A DNA stretch of 64,000 nucleotides from an uncultured Bacilli bacterium (GTDB taxonomy: Bacteria > Bacillota_I > Bacilli_A > RF39 > UBA660): positions 1,756 through 65,755 of the forward strand of contig CANQQV010000006.1 in assembly GCA_947626095.1 (NCBI GenBank), read 5' to 3'. Of this stretch, positions 10,299-46,708 are shown piece after piece (position 1 is the stretch's first letter; the number at the start of each line of letters is the position of its first letter). Made by a program: the position numbers and the translations under genes. Below the pieces are notes generated by a model that ran no database searches, was not told where the DNA came from, and saw only the letters and a program-made list of their open reading frames with translations.

Positions 10299-12842
10299 AT
10301 GATATTAATAATAATATTAGGATTTGTTATCTTGGGATTTATTATTGGTGAATCAATTGAAAGTAGGCCAAAGGCTGAAAGGAAATTGGTTGCTTATAAT
10401 ACAGTTAATGGTCAACCAATATATTTAGATCAATGTCGTTTTATACGTTATGATACAGAAACAGGTAACCCAATATTTGAAAATCCATATCGAATAGTTA
10501 AGTATGATTCACAAACGGGTAGACCAATTTGTGCGCAATTTGAAGTTGATAAAAGTGAATATAAAGATAATCGCTTTAATAGGGTTGAAGTTAAAAAACC
10601 ATTAACAGAAGAAGATAAAAATCGTTTATCTAATTCAATATTGATGATTGTAGGAGCTTTACTAGTTGTTATTGCTTCAGTTATTTTCTTGGCAACATCA
10701 TGGGAATCAATTTCAGGAATTATTAAAACTTTAGTATTAGTATTAGTTCAAGGAATGTTTTTCTTATTTGGTTATTTGTGTAAAAATAAGTTAAAAATTG
10801 AAAAAGTAGCAAAAGTATTTAATTATTTAGCTTTATGTTTTGTACCAATTGTTTTAATATCTTTATCAACGTTTGAATTAATTGGAAGCTTTTTATCAAT
10901 TCATGGTGAAGGATTCCGTTTGTATGTAACAATAGTTGGAATAATAGCTGATATTTTGTATAAAGTAATAGGATACTATAAGAAAGATAAAGTATGTAAG
11001 ATAATGAGTTATGTTGCTGAAGTAGGGGCTTTATTCTTTATAACTGATTATATTAGTAATGATGCATTAGCTAGTACGATTGTAGCTGTTTATAATATTT
11101 TAATTAGTTTTTTAATTAATAAGAATATTTTAGATAAAAAGGCTTATAAAATACCTAATAATATATTTAGTTATATTGCTTTATTATTAATTGTTATGGT
11201 AATTATTGTAAATAATGGTAGTTTATTGGTTTATATACCAATGATATTGTATACAATATATTATTATATAGAATATATTAAAGATACAGAGGGTAAGGTA
11301 TATAATTTTGTATTCTTTATTATTACATATGTCATTAATTTAACGTTAGTAAATAGAATAGATGGATCACCATATTTTGTTTATATCCTAAGTATAATGC
11401 CTTTAGTATTGTTAACTAAAACAATGAAAAATAAGAATAGTAAAAATGTTTTATATATAGTTGAATCAGTTGTTGCTCTATTATTTATTATGTTTGCTTT
11501 AGCAACACCAAATAAAACAGTTTATTATTTAATGACATTTATAATGGGATTTGGTTTCTATTTAATGATGTATGTATTAACTAAACAACCAATATATAAA
11601 GGAGCTGCTTATTTATTATTTACAAGTATTTTTATAGATATATTCTATATAAGCGATATATTAGATTATGCTAAATATATTCCTTTAGTCGTAGTAATAT
11701 TAATATATTTATTTGAAAATGTCTTTGATGAATTTAAAGACAGGGTTTCAATGGGATTAATTATTGCGATTCTAATACTTGAATCATTCTGGTTAATTCA
11801 AACATACTTTGTATTAGCACCATTAGTATTAATGCTAGCTTATATAAAACTAGAAAAACTGGATGAGACTTTATTAGTGATTCCAATGTTAACAAGTTTA
11901 ACTTTATTTGGAATGAATGATAATATAATTACGTTGGCATTAAGTTATATCTTAATTTCTATTTATACAGTTATGTCTTTATTACATAAGAAGTTTAATA
12001 TATATTCAGTTGCTTCAGTATTAGCAATTGTAATGGCAGCGATTGTATTTAAATATAAAGACTTAATTTTATTTGCTATATTATTAGTTTGGAGTATAGT
12101 TCATTTAGTTAGAAATAGTAAAGAAAAAAATTATTTATTTAAATTTGTTAATATTATAAGTGTATTAGGATTATACGTATCTACTTTAAGATTCTTTGAT
12201 ATTGATTTAATTGCTTTATATTTAGTTGGTTATTATATTGCGACTATAGCAATATCTGTATATGTTCTTAAAGATATTGGCGGCGACTTTGATAAATTTG
12301 CGGGATGTTTTGTCTTTGCAATTATTTCCTTAGTAAGTTTATTTATTGTTAAAGAGATTCCAGATGCTTTAATTTTAATAATATTCTTTTTCTTAGTTTC
12401 TTTAATAAGCTTTGTAGTGAAATGGCGTCATTACTTATATGAAGCTTTAATTATTATGATAGTTAATATAATTTATTTAACGATAGAATTCTGGGCGCAA
12501 ATACCATGGTATTTCTATATCTTAGCAATAGGTATGGGCTTAATAATCTTTGCAATGTTTGATGAAAGATTTAAACAAAAGAAGGAATTGAAAGGTACTA
12601 ATGAGGAGGCTGTTACACAAATACCGGTTAATGTTGTACCAGTTAATAATGAAGTTGGTATGCCTGAAGTAAATACGGCTGAAGTAGAAGAGCCTGTGCC
12701 TCAAGTAAAAGAAGAAGTTTTAGAGGAAAATAAAGTAGTAGATACTGAAGAAAAGAAACAAGAAGAAAAAGAAGAAGAAGTAAAGAGAAATACGCCAAAG
12801 AGAAGAGGACGTAGAAAGAAAACTGATAGTAAAACAACATAG
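10299..12842 (+). CDS. large polytopic membrane protein with N-terminal YDxxTGxPI repeats and charged C-terminal tail
   Basis: 847 aa with more than 20 predicted hydrophobic helices. Three 18-residue repeats near the N-terminus. E/K/R-rich tail. Confidence 0.65.
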   Translation: MILIIILGFVILGFIIGESIESRPKAERKLVAYNTVNGQPIYLDQCRFIRYDTETGNPIFENPYRIVKYDSQTGRPICAQFEVDKSEYKDNRFNRVEVKKPLTEEDKNRLSNSILMIVGALLVVIASVIFLATSWESISGIIKTLVLVLVQGMFFLFGYLCKNKLKIEKVAKVFNYLALCFVPIVLISLSTFELIGSFLSIHGEGFRLYVTIVGIIADILYKVIGYYKKDKVCKIMSYVAEVGALFFITDYISNDALASTIVAVYNILISFLINKNILDKKAYKIPNNIFSYIALLLIVMVIIVNNGSLLVYIPMILYTIYYYIEYIKDTEGKVYNFVFFIITYVINLTLVNRIDGSPYFVYILSIMPLVLLTKTMKNKNSKNVLYIVESVVALLFIMFALATPNKTVYYLMTFIMGFGFYLMMYVLTKQPIYKGAAYLLFTSIFIDIFYISDILDYAKYIPLVVVILIYLFENVFDEFKDRVSMGLIIAILILESFWLIQTYFVLAPLVLMLAYIKLEKLDETLLVIPMLTSLTLFGMNDNIITLALSYILISIYTVMSLLHKKFNIYSVASVLAIVMAAIVFKYKDLILFAILLVWSIVHLVRNSKEKNYLFKFVNIISVLGLYVSTLRFFDIDLIALYLVGYYIATIAISVYVLKDIGGDFDKFAGCFVFAIISLVSLFIVKEIPDALILIIFFFLVSLISFVVKWRHYLYEALIIMIVNIIYLTIEFWAQIPWYFYILAIGMGLIIFAMFDERFKQKKELKGTNEEAVTQIPVNVVPVNNEVGMPEVNTAEVEEPVPQVKEEVLEENKVVDTEEKKQEEKEEEVKRNTPKRRGRRKKTDSKTT

Positions 12843-12860
12843 TCAACTATGTTGTTTTTT
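12831..12860 (+). terminator. intrinsic terminator
   Basis: 12-bp stem AAAACAACATAG/CTATGTTGTTTT, loop TCAA, T-run. Overlaps the stop codon of the 847-aa gene. Confidence 0.8.
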
Positions 12861-12936
12861 GGTGATAATCTATATACAAATTTGACAAATTTAAGTATAA
12901 TGATATAAGAGGGTAGAAAGATATGGAGGTACTTGT

Positions 12937-14232
12937 ATGAACATAGTTATTCCAAAACCAGTTAATGAAGTTTTAAACATTATAAATGAAAAAGGCTATG
13001 AAGCATATATTGTTGGTGGAGCTGTTCGTAATTGGATTATGCAACTTAAACCAACTAATTATAATATAAGTACTAATGCTTCTTTAGAAAATATAAAAAG
13101 TGCTTTAAAAGGATATAATACTTTCTACTGTGGAGAAAATGATTCGCACTTAGGAATAGTTAATTCAAAGTTTCCAATGGAAGTTGCGAAGTATCGTGGA
13201 AAGACTAATACTTTAGAAGCTGATTTAGCTTCGAGAGATTTTACGATGAATGCTTTAGCTTATTCTGATGAAGATGGTTTAATTGATTATAGTACTGGTA
13301 TACGAGATATAAATAATAAGATAATTAAATTAAATGGGGAAGATGATGAAGTATTTATCAATGATCCATTACGTATTTTAAGAGCTATTAGATTATCTGG
13401 AGAATATGCGATGCGTATAGATATGGGGACGCAAGTCTTTATGAAAGATGATAAAGATTTACTTAAGAAAGTTGCCCCAGAGAGAATAAGAGATGAGTTA
13501 TGTAAGATTTTGGTAGTACCAAGAGCTGATTTCTATATTAAAAAATATTTTGAAATATTTATTGAATTTATTCCAGAATTAGCGTTATTAGAAAATTTTA
13601 ATCAAAATGATCCACAACATATATATGATGCTTTGGAACATACTTTTGTCGCATTAAAGGTTGTTGAACCTAAACTAGAATTAAGATTAGCAGTATTGTT
13701 CCATGATATTTCTAAACCATTTACTTATGTTAAAAATAGTGAAGGAATAGGAGAGTATCCTAATCATGCTAAACGTAGTGCTGATATGGCTAGAGAAATA
13801 ATGAATAGACTAAAATTTAATAAAAAGATGATTCAAAAAGTTACGAAGTTGATTGAATATCATGAATATAAAGTACCTGAAAATGATGTTTTAGTTAAAC
13901 AGTTTTTGACGAAATTTGGCACAGAAAATATTGAAGATTTATATAAAATAAAGAAAGCTAATCAATATGCCAAACATCCAGCTTATGTAAGTGAAATGGC
14001 TAATATAGATAAAGAGTATGAAAGATTAAAGAAGTTTTATCGTAAAACAGCCTTTATTAAGAAGAATGAATTAAAATTAACTGGTAAAGATTTATTAGAA
14101 CTTGGTATTAAGCAAAATGAAGTTGGTAAAGTATTAAATAGTTTATATCAGGATATAATAAATGGTAAGTTAAAGAATAATCGTGAAAAATTAGTTGATT
14201 ATGTTGTCACTAATTTGATTCCAGAAAATTAA
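12937..14232 (+). CDS. cca: CCA-adding tRNA nucleotidyltransferase with HD domain
   Basis: GGAVRN nucleotidyltransferase motif, RDFTMNA, DPLRILRA, HD motif (LFHDISKP). GGAGG SD. Confidence 0.85.
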   Translation: MNIVIPKPVNEVLNIINEKGYEAYIVGGAVRNWIMQLKPTNYNISTNASLENIKSALKGYNTFYCGENDSHLGIVNSKFPMEVAKYRGKTNTLEADLASRDFTMNALAYSDEDGLIDYSTGIRDINNKIIKLNGEDDEVFINDPLRILRAIRLSGEYAMRIDMGTQVFMKDDKDLLKKVAPERIRDELCKILVVPRADFYIKKYFEIFIEFIPELALLENFNQNDPQHIYDALEHTFVALKVVEPKLELRLAVLFHDISKPFTYVKNSEGIGEYPNHAKRSADMAREIMNRLKFNKKMIQKVTKLIEYHEYKVPENDVLVKQFLTKFGTENIEDLYKIKKANQYAKHPAYVSEMANIDKEYERLKKFYRKTAFIKKNELKLTGKDLLELGIKQNEVGKVLNSLYQDIINGKLKNNREKLVDYVVTNLIPEN

Positions 14233-14257
14233 AAAAGAGAATTAATTCTCTTTTTTT
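14231..14257. terminator. bidirectional terminator between convergent genes
   Basis: Palindrome AAAAGAGAATT/AATTCTCTTTT flanked by an A-run and a T-run. Confidence 0.7.
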
Positions 14258-14661
14258 GGTTGTTCTTCTTCCGTTTTAGTTTCTTCTTGTTGAATTTCAT
14301 CTTTGCGGTTGTATTTTACTACTTTACCATTATAATCATCAATAAAGTTACGATTGATATCTTCAGTAACGTGAATTTCTGTACCATCTTTTAACTTAAA
14401 GGTGTGTTTATAATGAAGAGTTTTATCGTCGGTACATTTTTTAAACCATAATGTTTCACAGTTATTAATATCTTCATAAACATATTCGGTACTCTTAGTA
14501 GCCATTATTTCTTTTTCGTCAAAACCGTATCTTTCAATTAAATATTTTTTAGCAACTGATGCTTGAATATCAGTAGAAGCAAAATAACCGATAACGACAA
14601 AAGCAATTACTAAGATGATAATAATGATAAACAGAATAGATCTTTTGATAAAATTTTTCAT
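14242..14661 (-). CDS. hypothetical membrane-anchored protein
   Basis: 139-aa ORF with one N-terminal TM helix and an acidic tail. Confidence 0.55.
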   Translation of the reverse strand: MKNFIKRSILFIIIIILVIAFVVIGYFASTDIQASVAKKYLIERYGFDEKEIMATKSTEYVYEDINNCETLWFKKCTDDKTLHYKHTFKLKDGTEIHVTEDINRNFIDDYNGKVVKYNRKDEIQQEETKTEEEQPKKEN

Positions 14662-14760
14662 ATTTTCTCCTTACTATAACTATTATATATAATGAAATTA
14701 TATCATAATTTCCGCATAAAATGACAAGAAGTGGTATAATAATGACAAGGAGGATTTGTT

Positions 14761-15516
14761 ATGATAAAAAAATGGATTTGTGAATTTGTAGGAACAATGC
14801 TATTAGTTATTTTTGGTTGTGGAACTGCTGTAGCTGTTAACTCTTATGTTAATGGAATCTATGGTATTGCATTACCATTCACATTATTAGTTATATCTTT
14901 AGCATTTGGCCTTGTATTAACTGCTTTAGTTTATACAATTGGTAAAGTGTCTGGAGCTCATGTTAACCCAGCGGTATCAATTGCTTGTTTAATTGATAAA
15001 CGTATGAGTGTTCTTGAATGTGTTGAATATGTTGTACTACAAATTCTTGGAGGTATAGCTGGAGCGGCAGTATTAATGTTAATATTTGGTAGTTCTGAAA
15101 GTTTAGGAGCTAATGGATATGATACATTAAGTGCATTACAGTCTTTTGTTCCAACAATGAAAGTTACAGCTGGTATAGCATTCTTAGTTGAAGCAATTTT
15201 AACTTTTATCTTTGTTTTAGTTGTATTAGCTACGACAAAGAAAGAAAATTGTTTTTCAGGTGTAATTATTGGCTTAACATTAGCTTTAGTACATATCTTT
15301 GGTATTGTATTTACTGGAACAAGTGTTAACCCAGCTAGAAGTATTGGTCCTGCATTACTATCAGGTGGAGAAGCATTATCTCAATTATGGGTATTTATAT
15401 TAGCTCCACTAGTTGGTGGTATCTTAGCTGCTTTATTCTATAGATTTGTTCTTAGTGAACCAGAAGAAGTTGCTACTGCAGAAGCGCCTAAAGCAATTAA
15501 AAAAGCTAAAAAGTAA
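14761..15516 (+). CDS. aquaporin / MIP-family channel
   Basis: Two NPA boxes (HVNPAVS, SVNPARS), six TM helices, AGGAGG SD. Confidence 0.9.
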   Translation: MIKKWICEFVGTMLLVIFGCGTAVAVNSYVNGIYGIALPFTLLVISLAFGLVLTALVYTIGKVSGAHVNPAVSIACLIDKRMSVLECVEYVVLQILGGIAGAAVLMLIFGSSESLGANGYDTLSALQSFVPTMKVTAGIAFLVEAILTFIFVLVVLATTKKENCFSGVIIGLTLALVHIFGIVFTGTSVNPARSIGPALLSGGEALSQLWVFILAPLVGGILAALFYRFVLSEPEEVATAEAPKAIKKAKK

Positions 15517-34963: not shown

Positions 34964-36037
34964 ATGGATTTAAACGGACACAAAGTGACTTTTGGTGCTG
35001 GTGGTCAATATGCAGCAGACAATGGTGTAACTTTAACTGTAAAAAATGGCGAAGTGGTTCTTGGTAATCCTACTGTAGTTGCATTTATTGTAAAAACTGG
35101 AGGAAGTTTGAACTTAACAAACCTAAAAATTACAGGTGCTGCTTATAGTTGGTCTTTAGTAGAAAATAGCGGCATTTTAAATATCGCTAGTGATGTTAAT
35201 GTAGATTTACCAAAAGCTAATGTTGTTTATACTTCTAAAGCTGGTGCTAAAACTACTTTAAATGGTAAATATAATGTTAATACTATAGTTGGAGTTGATC
35301 CTAGAACTGATGAAGTAGAAAGAAAAGGATCAGTTTCTACAATAGCTGTTAATGGTACATATACTACAGCAGCCAATGCATTAAGCGTTACTGATGGTGT
35401 TGTTGTTACTGTTGCTGCTGATATTGAAAGTGATAATTCTATAGCAGTTGTTAATGGTGGTAGCTTAGTAGTAAATAGCGGTGATTTATATTCTGCTGCA
35501 AGTGCTTCTGCAAATGTTCCAGCTATTAAAGTTGCAGGATCTACTGATGCTACAAAACTAACTGTTAATGGCGGTACTATTGCTAGTAAAAACAATTATG
35601 CATTATATTTAATGAATACAAAAGCTGCTTATTCAATTACTGATGGTACATTTGAAAGTGCTAAAGCTCTTAGTGCTGCAATTGGACTATACACTGGTTT
35701 CACTGAAACTAAAGATGGTGAAACACATGTTGTTCCAGCATTAAAAGGAATCTTAACTGGTGGTAAATATTTGAATAATATTATTGCTAAAGTATTAAAT
35801 GCTGATCAAGGTACTGTTGTTGTTTCAGATGAATTAGTTGCAGAAGGTTACACAGTTAAAGAAGAAGATAACTACAAAGTAGTAGTTTCAACAAAAGCAG
35901 AAAATGATAAGAAACCTGCTGCTAAGCCAGAAGAACAAGCTCCAAACACATATGATGCAGGTCTTGTATATATGGGATTAGCATTAAGTGCAATCGGTGC
36001 AAGTGTTGTTTCTGTTAGAAAATTAAGAAATAACTAA
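34964..36037 (+). CDS. surface protein paralogue 1 (beta-helix-like, C-terminal TM anchor), 5' end disrupted
   Basis: Coordinates follow the ORF track. The same frame is open from 34727 and encodes a signal-peptide h-region. The only plausible start (ATG 34693, MKKLFKIFNRLI) is in another frame. Confidence 0.55.
   Translation: MDLNGHKVTFGAGGQYAADNGVTLTVKNGEVVLGNPTVVAFIVKTGGSLNLTNLKITGAAYSWSLVENSGILNIASDVNVDLPKANVVYTSKAGAKTTLNGKYNVNTIVGVDPRTDEVERKGSVSTIAVNGTYTTAANALSVTDGVVVTVAADIESDNSIAVVNGGSLVVNSGDLYSAASASANVPAIKVAGSTDATKLTVNGGTIASKNNYALYLMNTKAAYSITDGTFESAKALSAAIGLYTGFTETKDGETHVVPALKGILTGGKYLNNIIAKVLNADQGTVVVSDELVAEGYTVKEEDNYKVVVSTKAENDKKPAAKPEEQAPNTYDAGLVYMGLALSAIGASVVSVRKLRNN
35834..36023 (+). 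repeat. 190-nt conserved 3' block, copy 1
   Basis: Differs at 4 of 190 positions from 37265-37454. Confidence 0.9.
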
Positions 36038-36205: not shown

Positions 36206-37510
36206 ATGACTGAAGCTATAGCAACAGGTGGATATATTACTTTATATGATAATGTAACTTATTCTACTGATAAAACTGTAGCAAAAAATTTAACAATGAA
36301 TTTAAATAATCATACTGCAGTATTTGGTACTAATAAAATGACTGTTGCTAAAGATGTTACATTAAGTGTTAATGGTGGTAAAGTTACTGCTGGTAATGTT
36401 GTTCCATTTGTTGTTAATGGTACTTTAGTATTAGAAAATGTTACTGCAACAACTGATACTCAATTGCTAGAAAATAATGGAACAGTTACTATTACAAATG
36501 GTACTTATACAACTGAAGCTAAAACACTTTCAGTAATTGAAAATAAAGGTACATTAACTGTGACAAATGCTAAATTTGTTGCACAAAAATTAACTACAGG
36601 TAGTCTTGTTAATAATGCTGGAACAGTAACTATGACTAATTTAGATGTTGATACAACTGGTGCATTACTTACAGTTGCAGCTCATGGTTCAAAAGCTACA
36701 TTAGCTGGTGGATTATATGATGCTACTGCTGTTGTAAAAACAGCTTTAAGTGCACCACCTGCATCTCATGGAGGTGTAGCAGCTACTGTTACTATCAATG
36801 GTGGTACTTATAACACTACAGGTACAGCTTTATATGCAAATTATGGCATGAGTTTAAATGTTACTGGTGGTACTATAACTTCTAAAGATCAAGGATTACA
36901 TTTATATGATGCTACTGCTGTTATTTCAGGTGGTACTATCAATTCTACTACAGCTACAGTTATAACAACAGGTGCTGGTAATGCTTCTTTAACAGTATCA
37001 GGTGGAACTCTTAAATCTGAAGGTTCTTATCCATTATATTTCCAAAATAATAATGCAACATATGCTATAAGTGGTGGAACATTTGAAGCTAAAATTGAAG
37101 ATCGTCCAGCTATTATGATTAGCAACTTAACAACTATTAAAGATGGTAAGACTGAAGTTGCTAAAGCTTACAAAGGAATTTTAACTGGTGGTAAGTACTT
37201 AAATAATATTATCGCTGGAGCAATTGTTGATAATAAAGGTGCAACAGTTGATGTAACTAATGATTTAGTTGCAGAAGGTTACACAGTAAAAGAAGAAGGT
37301 AACTACAAAGTAGTAGTTTCAACAAAAGCAGAAAATGATAAGAAACCAGCTGCTAAACCAGAAGAACAAGCTCCAAACACATATGATGCAGGTCTTGTAT
37401 ATATGGGATTAGCATTAAGTGCAATCGGTGCAAGTGTTGTTTCTGTTAGAAAATATAAAAGAGTTCTAATTATTTTTAGAACTCTTTTTATATTTACTTT
37501 GTTCGTTTAA
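36206..37510 (+). CDS. surface protein paralogue 2 (beta-helix-like, C-terminal TM anchor), no start for its signal peptide
   Basis: Coordinates follow the ORF track. The frame is open from 36050 and encodes CAILLSVVTVSAA, but has no ATG/GTG/TTG before 36206. Repetitive T/G/N-rich segments. Confidence 0.55.
   Translation: MTEAIATGGYITLYDNVTYSTDKTVAKNLTMNLNNHTAVFGTNKMTVAKDVTLSVNGGKVTAGNVVPFVVNGTLVLENVTATTDTQLLENNGTVTITNGTYTTEAKTLSVIENKGTLTVTNAKFVAQKLTTGSLVNNAGTVTMTNLDVDTTGALLTVAAHGSKATLAGGLYDATAVVKTALSAPPASHGGVAATVTINGGTYNTTGTALYANYGMSLNVTGGTITSKDQGLHLYDATAVISGGTINSTTATVITTGAGNASLTVSGGTLKSEGSYPLYFQNNNATYAISGGTFEAKIEDRPAIMISNLTTIKDGKTEVAKAYKGILTGGKYLNNIIAGAIVDNKGATVDVTNDLVAEGYTVKEEGNYKVVVSTKAENDKKPAAKPEEQAPNTYDAGLVYMGLALSAIGASVVSVRKYKRVLIIFRTLFIFTLFV
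37265..37454 (+). repeat. 190-nt conserved 3' block, copy 2
   Basis: Differs at 4 of 190 positions from 35834-36023. Confidence 0.9.
37457..37489. terminator. bidirectional terminator (surface gene / ABC-F)
   Basis: AAAA-GAGTTCTA-loop-TAGAACTC-TTTTT. Overlaps both coding ends. Confidence 0.75.
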
Positions 37511-39115
37511 CTCTTGATAGTATAAGACAGTATTCTTATCATAGTATCTTATTTCACCACTAGGTAACATTAACATTCTTTCAACACCTAAATTATCAAC
37601 AAATTCAGGATTATGAGAAACGATTAACATAGTACCTTCATATTCTTTAAAAGTATCAGCAATAATTTTTTGGGTTTCGGGATCTAAATGGTTAGTAGGT
37701 TCATCTAAGATAAGTAGGTTAGCGCCGGTTAGAGCTAGCTTAGCTAAAGCTACACGACTTCTTTCACCAGGAGATAGGTATGATACTTTTTTATATACTT
37801 CATCACCAGAGAATAAGAAGTTACCTAAAAATGCTCTTAATTCTTTAGTACTTAGATTAAATTCAGAGAAGTTTTCTAAGATTATTTTTTCGTTATCAAG
37901 TAGTTCGTGTTCTTGGGCATAATAACCGATTTCAGTTTTTTCATTTAAGTCAATTGTGCCAGATAAAGGTGTTAATGAACCGACAATTAACTTTAGAAGA
38001 GTTGATTTACCAATACCGTTTTCACCGACAATTAAGAATTTTTCGCCTCGACTTAAATCAAAAGTTAAGTTATCTAATAAAATATGATTTTCATTATAAC
38101 CAAATTTTAAGTTTTCAACTTTTAATGGAACAACGCCACTTGGATGATTAATTTTTATTTTAAATCTAGTAGTTTTTTGTTTCTTTTCTAGAGTAACTTT
38201 ATTTTCTTCTAAACGAGCAAGTTTTTTCTGACGGTCTTTAGCTATTCGAGCTTTCTTTTCATTACCACCAATATATTTAGCAATTATTCTTTTTAATTTT
38301 TCTTCTTCTTTAACTTGTTTATCATATATTCTTTCTTGAGTTTTTAATCGCTCATTTCTGATTTTCATATACTTTTCATAGTTACCAGGAAATAATTCCA
38401 TTTTATGAGTAGCTTTATCAACATATAATGTTTGAGTAGTTACTTGATCTAAGAATTCAATATCATGAGATATAACTAAGATAGTACCATTATAATTTCT
38501 TAAATAGTTAATAATATAATCTTTGGTATCAATATCTAAGTGGTTAGTAGGTTCATCTAAGAGTAATATTTCGGGATTAGAATAGAGTAGTCTAGCAAAG
38601 GCGATTTTACTTTTTTGACCTCCTGATAGATTGCATAGTTTCATATCAAGTAATTCACTATCTATATTCATACCGGTTACTATTTTAAGTAAAATATTTT
38701 CGGCGTTGTAAACTTCATAGTATTCTAGTTTTTCTTGAAGTTTGCCAATTTGTTTCATTATATATTTTATTTTTTGTTCATCAGTTTCTGTACTGGCATC
38801 AGTATAGGCTTTAGATAATTCAGCTTCTAATTTTTTAATTGGTCTACCATCTAAAAGATAATCAAAGACTGATATATCCATACTAGGTATTTCATCGCTG
38901 ATTACTTGAGGTAAAAAACCAATACGAGTACCAGGTTTTAAAATTATTTTACCATTATCAGGTTCTAATTTACCCATAATTAATTTAAAGAAAGTTGATT
39001 TACCAGCACCATTCATACCAATAATACCAACTTTTTCTTTATCTTTAATTTGAATAGTGACATCATCGAATATTTCTTGCAAACCAAAAGACATAGATAA
39101 GTTTTTAATATTCAT
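37466..39115 (-). CDS. ABC-F family ATPase (two ABC cassettes with a charged linker)
   Basis: Two Walker A motifs (GMNGAGKST, GENGIGKST), two LSGG/LSPGE signatures and a K/E-rich interdomain linker. ATG at 39115 after GAGGTG. Confidence 0.9.
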   Translation of the reverse strand: MNIKNLSMSFGLQEIFDDVTIQIKDKEKVGIIGMNGAGKSTFFKLIMGKLEPDNGKIILKPGTRIGFLPQVISDEIPSMDISVFDYLLDGRPIKKLEAELSKAYTDASTETDEQKIKYIMKQIGKLQEKLEYYEVYNAENILLKIVTGMNIDSELLDMKLCNLSGGQKSKIAFARLLYSNPEILLLDEPTNHLDIDTKDYIINYLRNYNGTILVISHDIEFLDQVTTQTLYVDKATHKMELFPGNYEKYMKIRNERLKTQERIYDKQVKEEEKLKRIIAKYIGGNEKKARIAKDRQKKLARLEENKVTLEKKQKTTRFKIKINHPSGVVPLKVENLKFGYNENHILLDNLTFDLSRGEKFLIVGENGIGKSTLLKLIVGSLTPLSGTIDLNEKTEIGYYAQEHELLDNEKIILENFSEFNLSTKELRAFLGNFLFSGDEVYKKVSYLSPGERSRVALAKLALTGANLLILDEPTNHLDPETQKIIADTFKEYEGTMLIVSHNPEFVDNLGVERMLMLPSGEIRYYDKNTVLYYQELNEQSKYKKSSKNN

Positions 39116-39146
39116 ATGTATCACCTCGCACTTAATATAATAACAT

Positions 39147-39178
39147 AAAAATAGAAGATAATTAATATCTTCTATTTT
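39147..39178. terminator. terminator closing the AAA_5 two-gene operon
   Basis: 10-bp stem ATAGAAGATA/TATCTTCTAT, loop ATTAA, flanked by A4 and T4. Confidence 0.7.
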
Positions 39179-40047
39179 GGTATTCGTTTTAGAACAAAGT
39201 CTTTTTCGCCTTGACGATTAATATATTCAAATAAATTATTGGTATCATCAACTAAATCATAACCGCTTATACCTATTTCATCAATTGTAGGAATTATAAT
39301 ATCATTTTTTTGTGGTTTAATAATTTCTTTGATAGTTTGAAAGTTACTTGGTTTGCCATAACCAGAAGCCCAGCCACTATAAGTAGCATCTGGTGTTTCT
39401 TCGATAAGACGGAAGTTTAGTCTTCTAATCCAGGATGGATGACATAGAGGGAAATATAATTTTTGGGGATTTAAACGTTCGTTTTCTTGTTTTAAAATAA
39501 ATTCACTAAAATGTAATTGATCCTCAACAGTAGACATTTCAAAAATATGTAAGTCAATGCTATATCCTAAGTTTTCTAATAATTCAACAATAGTTAAGAT
39601 GATGGCTCCACGATTAAAGATAGCATTAGCTCTAGTATAACCATAAAAGGAAGTATTTAAATAAATATCTATTTTCTTTCTTCTAGTTTGTGTTTTGTTT
39701 AACATAGATAGGGGACTTCCTTCTAAGTAAGCTTTTACATCAGGAGCATAACCGATATAATCATTAAATTGTTTATTACGTTTTTTACTCATTTTAATAT
39801 ATTTTTCTAATTTAATTTTTAACTCGATTAATTTTTCAAATTCTTCATGATAACCATATAGACACAATTTATAGGCTTCATCTAGAGAGTAGGTGTGAGT
39901 AAAGTTATAATCATCTTTAATACTGCATGGATTGCTAAAGGTATTTTGACATATGTTATGGTTTTTTAGATAATCGATAAATTCTGATAAAGAATAAAAT
40001 TTATAATGCATAACTTTATAGTTATTTTGACGATATAAACGATACAT
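39172..40047 (-). CDS. partner protein of the AAA_5 ATPase (possible degenerate vWA/CobT-like fold)
   Basis: ATG lies 2 nt after the stop of the ATPase gene. IDIYLNTSFYG sits where a MIDAS DxSxS motif would be. Assignment is tentative. Confidence 0.5.
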   Translation of the reverse strand: MYRLYRQNNYKVMHYKFYSLSEFIDYLKNHNICQNTFSNPCSIKDDYNFTHTYSLDEAYKLCLYGYHEEFEKLIELKIKLEKYIKMSKKRNKQFNDYIGYAPDVKAYLEGSPLSMLNKTQTRRKKIDIYLNTSFYGYTRANAIFNRGAIILTIVELLENLGYSIDLHIFEMSTVEDQLHFSEFILKQENERLNPQKLYFPLCHPSWIRRLNFRLIEETPDATYSGWASGYGKPSNFQTIKEIIKPQKNDIIIPTIDEIGISGYDLVDDTNNLFEYINRQGEKDFVLKRIPK

Positions 40048-40049
40048 AA

Positions 40050-41792
40050 TTACCTACTTAATTTAAGACTTTTAAGACCTTGATAATATATATTACTTGA
40101 ATTAATGTTTTGCATATTACCGATTATCATATTTAAATCATCTTGACCTAAATTTTTGACAACATTAGAAGTTAAGATATCTGGAACTGGTATTTTATTC
40201 AATTCTTTTTTATATACTTTACCAATTCCTCTGGTTGAGACAACGTGTGGGATTTTTGATTTTAAAACAGCATCTCTAAATGACCACATAAATTTTAAAA
40301 TTTGTTCACTAGGATATAAACATTCTTCTAGTTTACGATCATAATCAAAGAAGATATTATCAAAACGATCTAGAGTAGCAGCATCTAAAGCAGTACGACC
40401 AACATATTCTAAGTCAGCACCTTTACCCCAAGTATTAGCAGCAGCTATAATATGAAAGTTTGGATGTCTATCAATTGTTTCGTGAGGGAAAGCCATATAA
40501 CCATTAGCTAAAGCTGAGTTAATAACAATTAAAGCTGAAGGATCCGAATTATCAATTTCATCTAAGAAGAATAAACCACCATTTTTAAAAGCTTTATAAA
40601 ATTCAGTTTCACGATAAGTACCACCAGCATCAATAAAACCAGTTAGTTTAAATTCATTTGAAGCATTATTAGTATAATACATATGAAGACCTAAAGATTC
40701 TGCTACTTGTGAGACAGCAACGTTTTTACCACTACCAGCTGGTCCTATTAACATGATAGGTTCATCTAAAGCAGTTTGTCTTAGTATTTGTTCATATTTT
40801 TCGTGGTAGAAACCACCAGTTGTATGAGCTATTTCCGTATTATTTATGATAATACTATGAGATACTGGGACGTTAATAGTCTTAGTATAATCTTCAAGGA
40901 TTTTATCAAAGATAGTTCTTAGTAAATGATTAATATTATTTTCTGTATTAAATTCTTCGATAGCATGCTTAATTAATTCGAGTAAAGCCTTTTTGGTTTC
41001 AGCATTTAATTCCTTAGTTAAATAATCACTTATCTTTTTTTGAGGATCAGGTGAAGCTAAATAATCTTCTAAGTTTTTATTTATTTTATCTTTTACTGCT
41101 TCATTAGTAATAGAGAATAGTAGGGCATTTAAATTATCTAATAAGTTATCAGCATTTTGTCTAGTACGAGGAATAAATGAATCATCTTTAATTTTTGTAC
41201 CATCAATATTAAATTCTTCACCATTAACGATATAGGTATTATTTTTTACTTCTTCTATTTCATTACAGAAATAGCTTAAAATATCACGACTATTTGAATA
41301 CATTACTTCATGATTTATTTTAGTATAACCTATATATAGATGAGTGTTTTCATTATTTGGTTTAGTAACACCAGCAATTAATTCTTCAGAATTAGCATCC
41401 CAAATAACAGAACAAAAATGCATGTAATTACTAAGGATTTTAAATACTTCACATTTATGATCACGATAAAGTAAATTAATTAATCTTTGATATCGATCAC
41501 TATCATCAAGACGATAACGGCGAAAGTCATTAATAGCATTTGTTATTTCGTCTTGATTATAACCACTAACAGTTAATATTTTATTATTAGAATTCCAGAA
41601 GGGATCACGATCTTCCATATAACTATCGTAGACAATTTTAGCGAAAATTATCCCTGTATTTGATATCTCTTTGTGATTAATAGAGTAGTTATATGGACAA
41701 TTGGAATTAAGCCTTCTTTGAATGTCTTCATAGCTAAATTCTCTTCCTTTATATGCTATGAAAACAGTTCCACTTTTTTCATAGTCTTCCAT
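40050..41792 (-). CDS. AAA_5 (CobS/MoxR/McrB-clade) ATPase with a large novel N-terminal region
   Basis: C-terminal half: GPAGSGKN Walker A, LFFLDEID Walker B, IIAAANT sensor 1, LDAATLDRF. Start taken at MEDYEKS (41792) after GGAAGAG; the track start is 41810. Confidence 0.7.
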   Translation of the reverse strand: MEDYEKSGTVFIAYKGREFSYEDIQRRLNSNCPYNYSINHKEISNTGIIFAKIVYDSYMEDRDPFWNSNNKILTVSGYNQDEITNAINDFRRYRLDDSDRYQRLINLLYRDHKCEVFKILSNYMHFCSVIWDANSEELIAGVTKPNNENTHLYIGYTKINHEVMYSNSRDILSYFCNEIEEVKNNTYIVNGEEFNIDGTKIKDDSFIPRTRQNADNLLDNLNALLFSITNEAVKDKINKNLEDYLASPDPQKKISDYLTKELNAETKKALLELIKHAIEEFNTENNINHLLRTIFDKILEDYTKTINVPVSHSIIINNTEIAHTTGGFYHEKYEQILRQTALDEPIMLIGPAGSGKNVAVSQVAESLGLHMYYTNNASNEFKLTGFIDAGGTYRETEFYKAFKNGGLFFLDEIDNSDPSALIVINSALANGYMAFPHETIDRHPNFHIIAAANTWGKGADLEYVGRTALDAATLDRFDNIFFDYDRKLEECLYPSEQILKFMWSFRDAVLKSKIPHVVSTRGIGKVYKKELNKIPVPDILTSNVVKNLGQDDLNMIIGNMQNINSSNIYYQGLKSLKLSR

Positions 41793-41815
41793 ATTTTCTC
41801 TTCCTATCATTATAG

Positions 41816-41919
41816 TTTGTTATTAACATATTATTAATAACTGATACCAAAAAAATTAATTCTCTTGATAGTTTAATTATATATAGTAAAATAGTTATTG
41901 TCAATATGTTAATAACAAA
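41816..41919. repeat. perfect 17-bp inverted repeat pair separated by 70 bp
   Basis: TTTGTTATTAACATATT (41816-41832) and AATATGTTAATAACAAA (41903-41919). Confidence 0.85.
41876..41904 (-). promoter_or_regulatory. consensus sigma-A promoter of the AAA_5 operon
   Basis: Minus strand reads TTGACA (41904-41899), 17 nt, TATAAT (41881-41876). Confidence 0.65.
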
Positions 41920-42844: not shown

Positions 42845-43663
42845 TTATTTCTTAAGTCCTGCGGCGTCAAATGCAGATCTGATGCTATCAGCTTCAACAT
42901 ATTGATTAATACCACCAATAACTTTGTTCTTTTTAATAATAAGAGTTAGTGGAGTACCACCTATATTATCACTAGCATATGTTTTCCATTCACCACTACC
43001 TGATAATGAAGTTAATGTTTCAAATGCTTCTTCATCTTCAATATATGGTTGAGCAACGTTGAAATTAATTATTTTAGCTAAATCAATATATCTAATAGTT
43101 ATATTATATTCTTTAGCTACTTCAGTAATAATTGGGGCATATGCAGCGCAATAACCACATCCTTGACGACCAATTAAAACAACAATTGTATTTTTTTTAG
43201 ATTCACTTTCAATATCAGCAGCAGTTATTTCTTTAAAAGCTGATGTATCATAAGAATTAGATGTTTGTTCTTCTGAGTATGTATCGGAAACATCTTGGTC
43301 ATTTGCATAGTCATTATTTTCATTAGAGTTATTGAAAACACCAAATAGTAAAATAACATTTAATAGACAAATAATTAGAGTAAGGAAAAGTATTATATTA
43401 TTTTTCTTTTCCATATTAACTAATCGATCTTCGATAGACATTTCATCGAAGCTTATATTTTCATCATCATCAATTTCGTCTTCTTCAGTTTCTTCTACTT
43501 CTTCAGCTTCAACTTTTTCTTCCTCTTCATCTTCTACTTCTTCAGCTTCAACTTCTTCTTCCTCTTCATCTTCTTCTAATTCTTCTTCGATTTCTTCTAC
43601 AACTTCTTTTTCAATTTTTTTGGCTGCAGTTTCTTTTTTATCTTTTTGTTTCTTTTTTGCCAT
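42845..43663 (-). CDS. membrane-anchored thioredoxin-fold protein (CGYC) with poly-Glu N-terminal region
   Basis: MAKKKQK start after AAGGGAGG. E-rich cytoplasmic segment, one TM, extracytoplasmic GRQGCGYCAAYAP thioredoxin motif. Confidence 0.65.
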   Translation of the reverse strand: MAKKKQKDKKETAAKKIEKEVVEEIEEELEEDEEEEEVEAEEVEDEEEEKVEAEEVEETEEDEIDDDENISFDEMSIEDRLVNMEKKNNIILFLTLIICLLNVILLFGVFNNSNENNDYANDQDVSDTYSEEQTSNSYDTSAFKEITAADIESESKKNTIVVLIGRQGCGYCAAYAPIITEVAKEYNITIRYIDLAKIINFNVAQPYIEDEEAFETLTSLSGSGEWKTYASDNIGGTPLTLIIKKNKVIGGINQYVEADSIRSAFDAAGLKK

Positions 43664-43797
43664 AACAAATCCTCCCTTAAGAGTATTATAAAACAAAATA
43701 ACTATTTGCTCAAATAAAATATATATGTAAATACTAATAAAATATCTTTATTTATTACCTTTATAAAAGGTATAATGATTTTGAAGGTAGTGATGAG

Positions 43798-45771: not shown

Positions 45772-46632
45772 TTAGAGATTAGTACTTTGTTTTTTAATAA
45801 GTTTAGCGTGAACGACAATGCGATCACCACTATTATTTTTACAAGTAGATAAAGTAAGAATTTTATCTTGCTCATTAACTTCAGTCTTAATTGGAGCTTT
45901 ATTTCTTGATTTCATTGTTTGTAACCATTCTATTTTATCTTTAGAATTACTGAAATTAGTTTTTAAATAGTAGGTTTCTTCTTTAATGGTATAAATAGAA
46001 AATATTTGAAAAACATAATTTGTTTTAGGTGTTGATAACCATATAACGTAATTATCTTTATTATTTTGCCATTCGTTAGTTAAAACAGTTCTTAATGATC
46101 CAAACATCGTACCATCTTTACGACCATGACCATAGATGATAGTATTGTCATCTAAAGAATCAAGATTATTGCGATAGTCCATAAAAATCCAACCAGCATT
46201 ATTTTTATGATTATTAAAAGAATGATTTAAATAATAAGTATTATTTTTACTTTGAACTACTGGATAATCAATATTAGTATTATCAAGATGAATGTATCCA
46301 ACAGTATTTTGGTTGGTTTTAAGATATTCATCAAAAGAAATATTATAGAACGGTTTATTTGCATAGTACCAATAATCATTATATATTTCATCAGGAGCGT
46401 TGATTAATTCGCTATTGCTTGTATTTATATTTATTTTTGTTTGAGTGTTAAGATCATTGATTATTTTATTTGTATTATGATTGTCGATAAGCCATGTAAT
46501 ATTTTGATATAAAGTATAAATAAAAGTAAAGATTAGAATGGTAAGGATGATTATGTAAGGAAGTAATTCAATTATCTTTTTTTTAGTTATTTTTTTCTTA
46601 GAAAATTTCTTTCTTTTGGTTTTATTGGCCAT
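45772..46632 (-). CDS. srtB: class B sortase
   Basis: N-terminal TM anchor, catalytic YGH, TLSTC and downstream Arg (RIVVHAKL). ATG at 46632. Confidence 0.85.
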   Translation of the reverse strand: MANKTKRKKFSKKKITKKKIIELLPYIIILTILIFTFIYTLYQNITWLIDNHNTNKIINDLNTQTKININTSNSELINAPDEIYNDYWYYANKPFYNISFDEYLKTNQNTVGYIHLDNTNIDYPVVQSKNNTYYLNHSFNNHKNNAGWIFMDYRNNLDSLDDNTIIYGHGRKDGTMFGSLRTVLTNEWQNNKDNYVIWLSTPKTNYVFQIFSIYTIKEETYYLKTNFSNSKDKIEWLQTMKSRNKAPIKTEVNEQDKILTLSTCKNNSGDRIVVHAKLIKKQSTNL

Positions 46633-46708
46633 ATTAATCACTCTTTATTGAGCGTTATTATATCATTTTATATTTAAAAGTACAATTTTTTGAAGTACAA
46701 TATAGCTG

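Follow-up and report, generated by a model that had tools for sequence, protein, structure and literature searches.

What kind of machine is encoded when a AAA+ ATPase carries at its N-terminus a domain resembling the glutaminase domain of asparagine synthetase, and is followed at once by a small partner gene? This question is raised by a two-gene operon in a 64,000-nucleotide stretch of DNA (the window) from an uncultured Bacilli bacterium (GenBank assembly GCA_947626095.1, contig CANQQV010000006.1). The window is AT-rich chromosomal DNA (GC 21–32%) of a gut organism, and the closest genome is a rabbit-gut metagenome-assembled genome (MAG; locus L009), with 86% identity in gene 1. On the (-) strand, to which all coordinates of the operon refer, gene 1 (40050..41792) encodes a 580-aa fusion of a pseudo-glutaminase N-domain, a helical linker and a MoxR/CobS-class AAA+ module, and gene 2 (39172..40047) encodes a 291-aa DUF7192 protein, a putative adaptor. 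Throughout, L-numbers denote genome or phage loci and P-numbers homologous proteins.

An earlier note, made from the letters alone, had proposed an AAA_5 ATPase with an AsnB-like N-domain and a small partner, possibly a CobS/CobT-like or McrBC-like pair or a defence-type pair. The reading we favour, with a probability of about 0.6, is that the operon encodes a motor–adaptor protein-remodelling pair, in which a MoxR/CobS-class AAA+ ATPase works with an adaptor of the von Willebrand factor A (VWA) type. Because the DUF7192 partner is constant and its nearest folds are those of VWA adaptors, the pair is recast as a motor–adaptor remodeller, which gives DUF7192 a testable role. The fusion of a dead-glutaminase domain to a AAA+ motor appears to be undescribed: the literature searched does not mention DUF7192, amidotransferase or N-terminal nucleophile (Ntn) fusions are absent from the comparative-genomics papers searched on MoxR–vWA systems, the one on conflict systems among them, and a transcriptome study of a Kayvirus passes over the ATPase. 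The earlier note knew of no described system with this fusion; it had missed that the core pair is already catalogued (PF23822 DUF7192, phrog_249, phrog_1909) and common in phages. Widespread among phages, of which Staphylococcus phage K is one, the core pair is nevertheless unstudied.

The AAA+ motor and its DUF7192 partner

The AAA+ module of gene 1 (aa 336–586, 40053..40805) comprises an alpha/beta core and a lid; residue numbers here and below count from the ATG at 41810 given by the open reading frame (ORF) finder, not from 41792. Pfam AAA_5 is matched with 46.8 bits against a gathering cutoff of 22 (3.8e-12), aa 352–483 covering profile positions 2–139 of 139, and the phage family phrog_249 matches aa 266–532 (2.8e-53). 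The best PDB sequence matches of the ATPase are CobS (top, E 0.0046), CbbQ and NorQ, with E about 0.005–0.01. In an AlphaFold2 model of gene 1 built from 22 homologues, the AAA+ half was matched by Foldseek to NorQ in NorQD complexes (9qhf/9qhd, E about 3e-7) and to CbbQ (5c3c and 6l1q, E about 2e-6), each with a probability of 1.0. The AAA_5 assignment was thus borne out by Pfam and by the NorQ and CbbQ folds, and the motifs that had been quoted for it (GPAGSGKN, LFFLDEID, IIAAANT and LDAATLDRF) are all present. Walker B, LFFLDE (aa 413–418, 40557..40574), is invariant in the homologue alignment, including D417 and E418, as are sensor 1 AAANT and the TLDRF-type sensor 2. The module belongs to the MoxR/CobS class: its Walker B, sensor and Arg motifs are intact, and its GKN is specific to the clade. 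Between homologues, mean pairwise identity reaches 91% in the AAA alpha/beta core and 73% in the lid, compared with 54% in the linker and 52% in the N-domain, and the difference between core and N-domain indicates a tightly constrained motor.

The Walker A motif, GPAGSGKN (aa 356–363, 40722..40745), has Asn at the position where Ser or Thr is expected, so that the canonical GxxGxGK[S/T] is unmatched. GPAGSGKN is invariant in the homologue alignment of the clade and occurs exactly in 53 of 72 locus ORFs; GKN is also found in phages, as GGAGSGKN in GH15 and GRAGSGKN in Enterococcus phage vB_CECAV_04; in relatives further removed, the P-loop reads GKS or GKT. Judged from these sequences, the GKN P-loop is a clade hallmark common to the clade of the window and those phages, which the earlier note, having correctly recorded the Asn, had not recognised. 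As an unusual and invariant P-loop, it is of biochemical interest. The helical linker between N-domain and motor (aa 208–335, 40806..41189), modelled as helices at low confidence, is about 125–130 aa long and not ~170 residues as had been estimated; its C-terminal half is common to phage ATPases, the phrog_249 match beginning at aa 266.

Gene 2 is the constant companion of this motor. In a taxonomic scan with one genome per species, giving 67 loci, a hidden Markov model (HMM) search of all ORFs found the DUF7192 gene adjoining the ATPase gene in 66 of the 67, across Bacillota, Actinomycetota and Bacteroidota; the lone exception, L029, ends at a contig edge. The two genes are likewise adjacent in four phages, namely Staphylococcus GH15, Listeria LMTA-148, Mycobacterium Crossroads and Enterococcus vB_CECAV_04, the last with reversed order. 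The DUF7192 gene is an obligate neighbour of the ATPase gene in cells and phages, and the small partner proposed earlier does co-occur with its ATPase.

The DUF7192 family (PF23822) is matched by gene 2 at aa 8–257 (5.5e-31, 108.4 bits against a gathering cutoff of 27), and phrog_1909 at 4.7e-38; that the phage partners belong to DUF7192 was confirmed as well. The AlphaFold2 model is confident overall, with a predicted local distance difference test (pLDDT) score of 85 and a predicted template modelling (pTM) score of 0.81. Among PDB folds it has no strong neighbour; the three best are all NorD's VWA domain within NorQ–NorD complexes, with E 1.7e-3 to 2.2e-2 and TM about 0.2 (top match: probability 0.92, TM 0.21), followed at lower rank by the VWA domains of TRAP, factor B and Ku. 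In the viral structure library BFVD, the strong matches (E 1e-14 to 1e-9) are to DUF7192 proteins from phages of Mycobacterium, Gordonia and Lactobacillus, and a second tier consists of phage vWA/CobT-like proteins (E 3e-3 to 4e-2). Since two independent structure libraries agree, a very diverged VWA-like fold is indicated, though not proven. Both segments of gene 2 to which the earlier note had drawn attention, IDIYLNTSFYG and PSWIRRLNFRL, are present in the protein; the likeness of the latter to CobT-type partners found no support when a profile was compared with PDB sequences. Matches of gene 2 to PPR proteins among PDB sequences were discarded as compositional, with 0 significant stretches.

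Conservation in gene 2 is highest in a near-invariant loop, QFNDYIGYAPDVKAYLEGSPLSMLNK (aa 93–118, 39694..39771), which is nevertheless the sole low-confidence, disordered part of the model, with pLDDT below 50 at aa 89–106 and 114–121. Such near-invariance combined with modelled disorder is commonly seen where a segment becomes ordered upon binding a partner, and the loop is a candidate contact to the ATPase.

The pseudo-glutaminase N-domain

The N-domain of gene 1 (aa 11–207, 41190..41780; pLDDT about 90) has a class-II, Ntn-type glutamine-amidotransferase fold. Its top Foldseek match in the PDB is E. coli AsnB (1ct9, chain D, E 4.7e-10), and the alignments with chains A and B extend over ~205 columns at a root mean square deviation of 3.7–4.0 A; the glutaminase domain of GlmS (1xff, TMt 0.58), human ASNS and beta-lactam synthetase are matched as well. 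Because the N-domain profile matched no PDB sequence at E up to 10, the homology to AsnB had to be sought by fold search, by Pfam scans of individual members and by hhalign. GATase_7 is matched by 3 of 17 homologue N-domains (best 9.7e-7), DUF3700 by 3 and GATase_6 by 1, and P0034 reaches GATase_7 over aa 56–168 with 25.1 bits against a gathering cutoff of 25; gene 1 of the window itself reaches no GATase Pfam model. The hhalign comparison of the N-domain profile with AsnB placed 61–193 on 59–188 (E 3.9e-4, probability 36%), pairing LAVNGEIYN with LTVSG--YNQ and FAFALYDSEKDAYLIGRD...PLYMGY with HFCSVIWDANSEELIAGVT...HLYIGY. The segments aligned in the earlier note were thereby reproduced, and fold comparison upheld the relationship to class-II glutaminases; however, the likeness is not confined to the second half of the glutaminase domain, as had been supposed, but spans all of it.

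The catalytic residue is lost. The family N-terminus reads MExxEKSGxxFIAYKG, and the homologue alignment contains no invariant Cys, Ser or Thr near the start of the N-domain, the adjoining Ser13 not being invariant; when the two are aligned globally, AsnB Cys1 is placed on invariant Gly14, which has 13 residues ahead of it, at a low-confidence end of the alignment. As a conserved N-terminal nucleophile is absent, in agreement with what had been noted of the Cys, the N-domain is a pseudo-glutaminase. Gene 1 has no synthetase (acceptor) domain either, and the N-domain leads into the helical linker and then into the AAA+ module. The N-domains of beta-lactam synthetase (1jgt, 1m1z, 1mbz), which are among the fold matches, likewise lack the Cys1 nucleophile; there the domain is carried on an adenylating synthetase, whereas in gene 1 it is carried on a AAA+ motor. 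A dead class-II glutaminase fold serving as the N-domain of a AAA+ protein would be a clean case of a pseudoenzyme put to new use in binding.

Among 1.84 billion proteins the profile of the domain found only ~100 representative clusters, which include AAA_5 fusions, one fusion to a classical PF00004 AAA ATPase (P0290, 559 aa), stand-alone proteins and one four-copy array. Its occurrence in the PF00004 fusion and in stand-alone and tandem forms is the behaviour expected of a binding module. Three such forms, namely a stand-alone gene immediately behind the gene 2 homologue, the four-copy tandem array and the PF00004 fusion, are represented by L025 9450–10097, L029 9806–10306, P0241 (906 aa) and P0290. 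The domain is absent from 50,697 phage GenBank records and from IMG/VR; it is seen in cellular copies only, in gut Bacilli and Eggerthellaceae.

Proposed mechanism and competing explanations

Two systems provide the template for how the pair might work. NorQ/NorD, a MoxR-class AAA+ ATPase with a VWA partner, inserts non-haem iron into nitric oxide reductase; a finger of the VWA domain enters the hexamer pore, the NorD C-terminus touches the ring, and the adaptor is twisted and stretched as ATP is hydrolysed, thereby acting on the client (PMC13036017, PMC9976466). In CobS–CobT, a CobT shaft stands inside the CobS ring, and CobN lies on the opposite face of the adaptor (bioRxiv 10.64898/2026.07.21.739949). 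By analogy, we infer that gene 1 would form a hexameric ring motor and that gene 2 would dock on the ring, on its axis, as an adaptor with an element protruding into the pore. The aa 93–118 loop, or another finger, might lie against the NEFKLTGFIDAGG segment of the ATPase, and the loop is a candidate pore or ring contact that could meet an equally invariant ATPase insert, MYYTNNASNEFKLTGFIDAGG. ATP hydrolysis would then pull or twist the adaptor, so that a presumed client protein is remodelled, and the six pseudo-glutaminase N-domains would act not as enzymes but as a crown binding clients or small ligands, like the N-domains of other AAA+ machines.

The likeness to these systems has its limits. 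[quoted passage not shown] A viral MoxR-type motor with a vWA-type co-chaperone has precedents in a jumbo-phage pair with a metallopeptidase and in the MoxR–vWA pair of ATV tail assembly (PMC7824862). Among the closest known counterparts is the GH15 pair, ORF047 (annotated as AAA ATPase; phrog_249) and ORF046 (hypothetical; phrog_1909), which are homologues of both genes (HMM E 1e-69 and 6e-42) with the same order, adjacency, GKN and FKLTGFIDA(N/G)G segment as in the window, although the Herelleviridae ATPase lacks the AsnB-like N-domain.

Several observations weigh against the motor–adaptor reading. The VWA assignment of gene 2, taken from a model, is weak (TM about 0.2, E 1.7e-3): Pfam finds DUF7192 alone and no VWA domain, and searches of PDB sequences with the single sequence and with a profile gave nothing real. 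The equivalent of the MIDAS DxSxS (aa 131–135, NTSFY, 39643..39657), which follows a predicted strand at 125–131, is degenerate and not conserved, reading N-x-S-x-(Y/L/S), with N in 28/29, S133 in 18/29 and S at the fifth position in 7/29. AlphaFold2 confidence is only moderate for the AAA+ module and low for the linker, and Asn in place of Ser/Thr in Walker A might impair or alter nucleotide hydrolysis. Finally, no client was identified, and no neighbour family occurs in more than 10 of the 67 loci. Weak hints as to clients suggest a link with DNA or nucleotide metabolism, or with proteolytic processing; they consist of recurring nucleotide-metabolism genes, a tail resembling that of single-stranded DNA-binding protein (SSB) in one gene 2 subclade, and an HExxH protein in a sister subgroup.

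Of the parallels drawn earlier, the CobS/CobT-like pairing is the one that we favour, although the vWA nature of gene 2 comes only from weak fold matches and its MIDAS is not conserved; a McrBC-like pair was rejected, as there is no McrB or McrC family match, McrB lies outside the top 50 fold matches and gene 2 has no nuclease fold. Resemblance to CobS/CobT does not make the pair a genuine cobaltochelatase or another tetrapyrrole metal chelatase, an explanation that we consider hardly credible. It could appeal to the phrog_249 label 'porphyrin biosynthesis' and to CobS being the top PDB sequence match, albeit at E 0.0046. Membership is effectively refuted, however, by 16.7 bits against the cutoff of 558.55 of the NCBIfam CobS equivalog TIGR01650 and by the lack of any recurrent CobN-sized neighbour in the 67 loci, and the partner has no MIDAS motif; the PHROG label was carried over from distant similarity. 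Hundreds of sequenced phages, Listeria phages and the Staphylococcus Kayviruses used in therapy among them, carry the phrog_249 ATPase, which is routinely mislabelled 'porphyrin biosynthesis' or 'CobS', so that the present analysis corrects a widespread phage annotation. It is also highly improbable that the N-domain retains amidotransferase or amidohydrolase activity, coupling ammonia supply or amide cleavage to the ATPase: the fold is that of a class-II GATase, and the equivalent of AsnB Asn74–Gly75 is partly kept as (N/S)82–G83, but an invariant Gly occupies the place of the Cys/Ser/Thr nucleophile, the synthetase domain is missing, and the protein of the window falls below every GATase Pfam model.

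An unrecognised anti-phage defence or conflict system, in which a variable N-domain senses infection and gene 2 is the effector or an adaptor, is rather doubtful. Such a system would agree with a self-contained two-gene module of patchy occurrence across phyla, with an ATPase N-terminal region that differs between subgroups, with homologues carried by phages, and with the MoxR–vWA cores known from conflict systems (PMC7159879). Against it, PADLOC-DB v2 gave gene 1 only IetA (E 0.0045, 14 bits) and gene 2 nothing, and the ten neighbours yielded nothing specific beyond the generic ABC-ATPase similarity of an ABC-F gene, so that the defence-type pair suggested by the earlier note gained no meaningful match. 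Neither Pfam nor fold search recognises an effector domain, purifying selection on the motor is very strong, the pair keeps its synteny with housekeeping genes within sub-lineages, and in lytic phages the core pair stands among early and nucleotide-metabolism genes. Another explanation is a phage-derived module retained by the host for the same job as in Herelleviridae, for example the assembly or maturation of replication and nucleotide-metabolism complexes or the proteolytic processing of clients, which is unlikely on present evidence; it is compatible with the motor–adaptor reading and refines it rather than excluding it. The nearest annotated relatives are phage proteins with the same GKN P-loop, nucleotide-metabolism genes lie near the pair both in phages and in L002/L006, the SSB-like tail ...DDLPF/...EELPF ends gene 2 in one subclade, and in the GKS subgroup the pair is accompanied by an invariant HExGHG gene, in parallel to the jumbo-phage MoxR–vWA–metallopeptidase system (PMC7824862). 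On the other hand, homology is lacking between the nucleotide-metabolism neighbours in phages and those in cells, gene 2 of the window lacks the tail, its subgroup has no peptidase gene, and no phage genes lie near the pair in the window. A joint proposal is speculative and rather improbable: virulent phages and gut bacteria would share an unrecognised class of AAA+ machine acting on DNA-replication or SSB-interactome machinery, as the SSB-like ...DDLPF docking tail on some adaptors might suggest, in which the cellular dead glutaminase domain is a metabolite sensor (of glutamine or nitrogen status) or a client-recognition crown, or else cells have turned their version into a new kind of anti-phage system.

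Distribution, operon signals and neighbouring genes

Full-length homologues of gene 1 are abundant in gut metagenomes, with 60–97% identity on contigs of up to 1.39 Mb, and most of the 67 loci belong to uncultured Bacilli or 'Tenericutes'. Eggerthellaceae and Coriobacteriales, including cultured Gordonibacter, have full-length copies at about 45% identity, and copies without the N-domain occur in Muribaculaceae, Christensenellaceae and others; L057, L064 and L065 are loci of the latter kind. No full-length relative was found on plasmids, merely distant MoxR/CobS ATPases. L059–L062 combine reversed gene order with two tandem N-domains, the tandem copies being confirmed in L059 and L060. In the GKS subgroup, L067–L075, the ATPase has a coiled-coil N-terminus, and an invariant HExGHG gene lies upstream. 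This third gene (L067 6977–7903, L071 6868–7800) encodes ~310 aa directly 5' of the ATPase with an invariant HExGHG...E; by its sequence it looks like a gluzincin-type metallopeptidase, and no Pfam or PHROG family matched it. The subgroup is similar to the jumbo-phage MoxR–vWA–metallopeptidase system by arrangement alone, and the peptidase is absent from the subgroup of the window.

Among the phage neighbours of the pair (L001 GH15, L076 vB_CECAV_04) are a nucleotide kinase, MazG, a nucleoside deoxyribosyltransferase and a metal-dependent hydrolase, and among the bacterial ones (L002/L006 8900–10600) HD, NT5C, an AAA_33 kinase and Nuc_deoxyri_tr2; the two sets have a theme in common but no sequence homology. 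The gene 2 homologues of one subclade (L040 9761–10693, L041 5647–6600, L043 9743–10699; P0166, P0218, P0237) end in an acidic ...DDDDLPF/...DEELPF tail reminiscent of DDD(I/L)PF, the tip by which bacterial SSB docks at its C-terminus. The gene 1 homologue P0073 ends ...YYDSGLPF, and an [LIMV]PF ending was found in only 1 of ~800 other locus ORFs, that one non-acidic. L023 has a second, divergent pair 2.4 kb downstream of the first (762-aa ATPase with GPSGCGKS, 12112–14397; DUF7192, 14401–15447). In two MAGs (L028 7986–10626, L063 5451–8987), the ATPase and DUF7192 genes are both broken into several ORFs, which are possibly pseudogenes or assembly frameshifts.

In the window, the two genes are co-directional and separated by 2 nt in the ORF listing, and both are real, since the homologues of each number in the hundreds, the lowest E-values being 0. 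The ORF finder begins gene 1 at an upstream ATG (40050..41810, 586 aa) that is probably unused: 21 homologues in the alignment begin MEDYEKSG, and a ribosome-binding site, AGGAAGAG (41798..41805), lies 5 nt 5' of the ATG at 41792; both observations mark this Met as the true start. The two-gene operon and its start, as first described, are thus confirmed by ORFs, homologue starts and ribosome-binding site. The promoter proposed for it, a sigma-70-type TTGACA-17 nt-TATAAT (41876..41904), does agree with the consensus at 12/12 positions, but promoter-like sites in this AT-rich region are no more frequent than in shuffles (22 found against 24.5 expected), which tempers the assignment. An own terminator was supported by folding: an intrinsic-terminator-like hairpin (39148..39178), with a perfect 13-bp AT-rich stem that contains the stop codon and is followed by a U-rich tract, folds at -14.3 kcal/mol (z = -5.2, equalled by 0/200 shuffles), although, with fewer than three G–C pairs in its stem, it escaped a consensus scanner, which reported no terminator. 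Rfam had no match in the operon or its leader.

The genes around the pair are ordinary ones. FolD and a thioredoxin-like membrane protein are encoded upstream of the pair and an ABC-F ATPase downstream, with sortase and RNase R further out; annotation of the neighbours revealed no phage genes near the pair. The order Trx-like, folD, pair, ABC-F is kept in the window, L009, L010, L017 and L018, and such synteny within sub-lineages fits long-term chromosomal residence rather than a mobile island. The thioredoxin-like protein (42845–43696, (-)), kept with folD upstream of the pair in these four other loci, combines a long, acidic N-terminus of low complexity, rich in E and D, with a transmembrane segment and a thioredoxin-like CGYC motif, and has no Pfam match. 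The ABC-F-type ATPase (37466–39124, (-)) contains two ABC_tran domains and ABC_tran_Xtn; since further MADS components are missing from its surroundings, its PADLOC score for 'mad3' (1.6e-56) is taken to reflect generic similarity between ABC ATPases. Beyond it, at 34964–36037 and 36206–37510 (+), two adjacent paralogous Thr/Gly/Val-rich surface-type proteins have in common a near-identical ~75-aa C-terminal segment (GILTGGKYLNNIIA through KKPAAKPEEQAPNTYDAGLVYMGLALSAIGASVVSVRK) with a terminal membrane anchor, and the sortase gene lies at 45772–46641.

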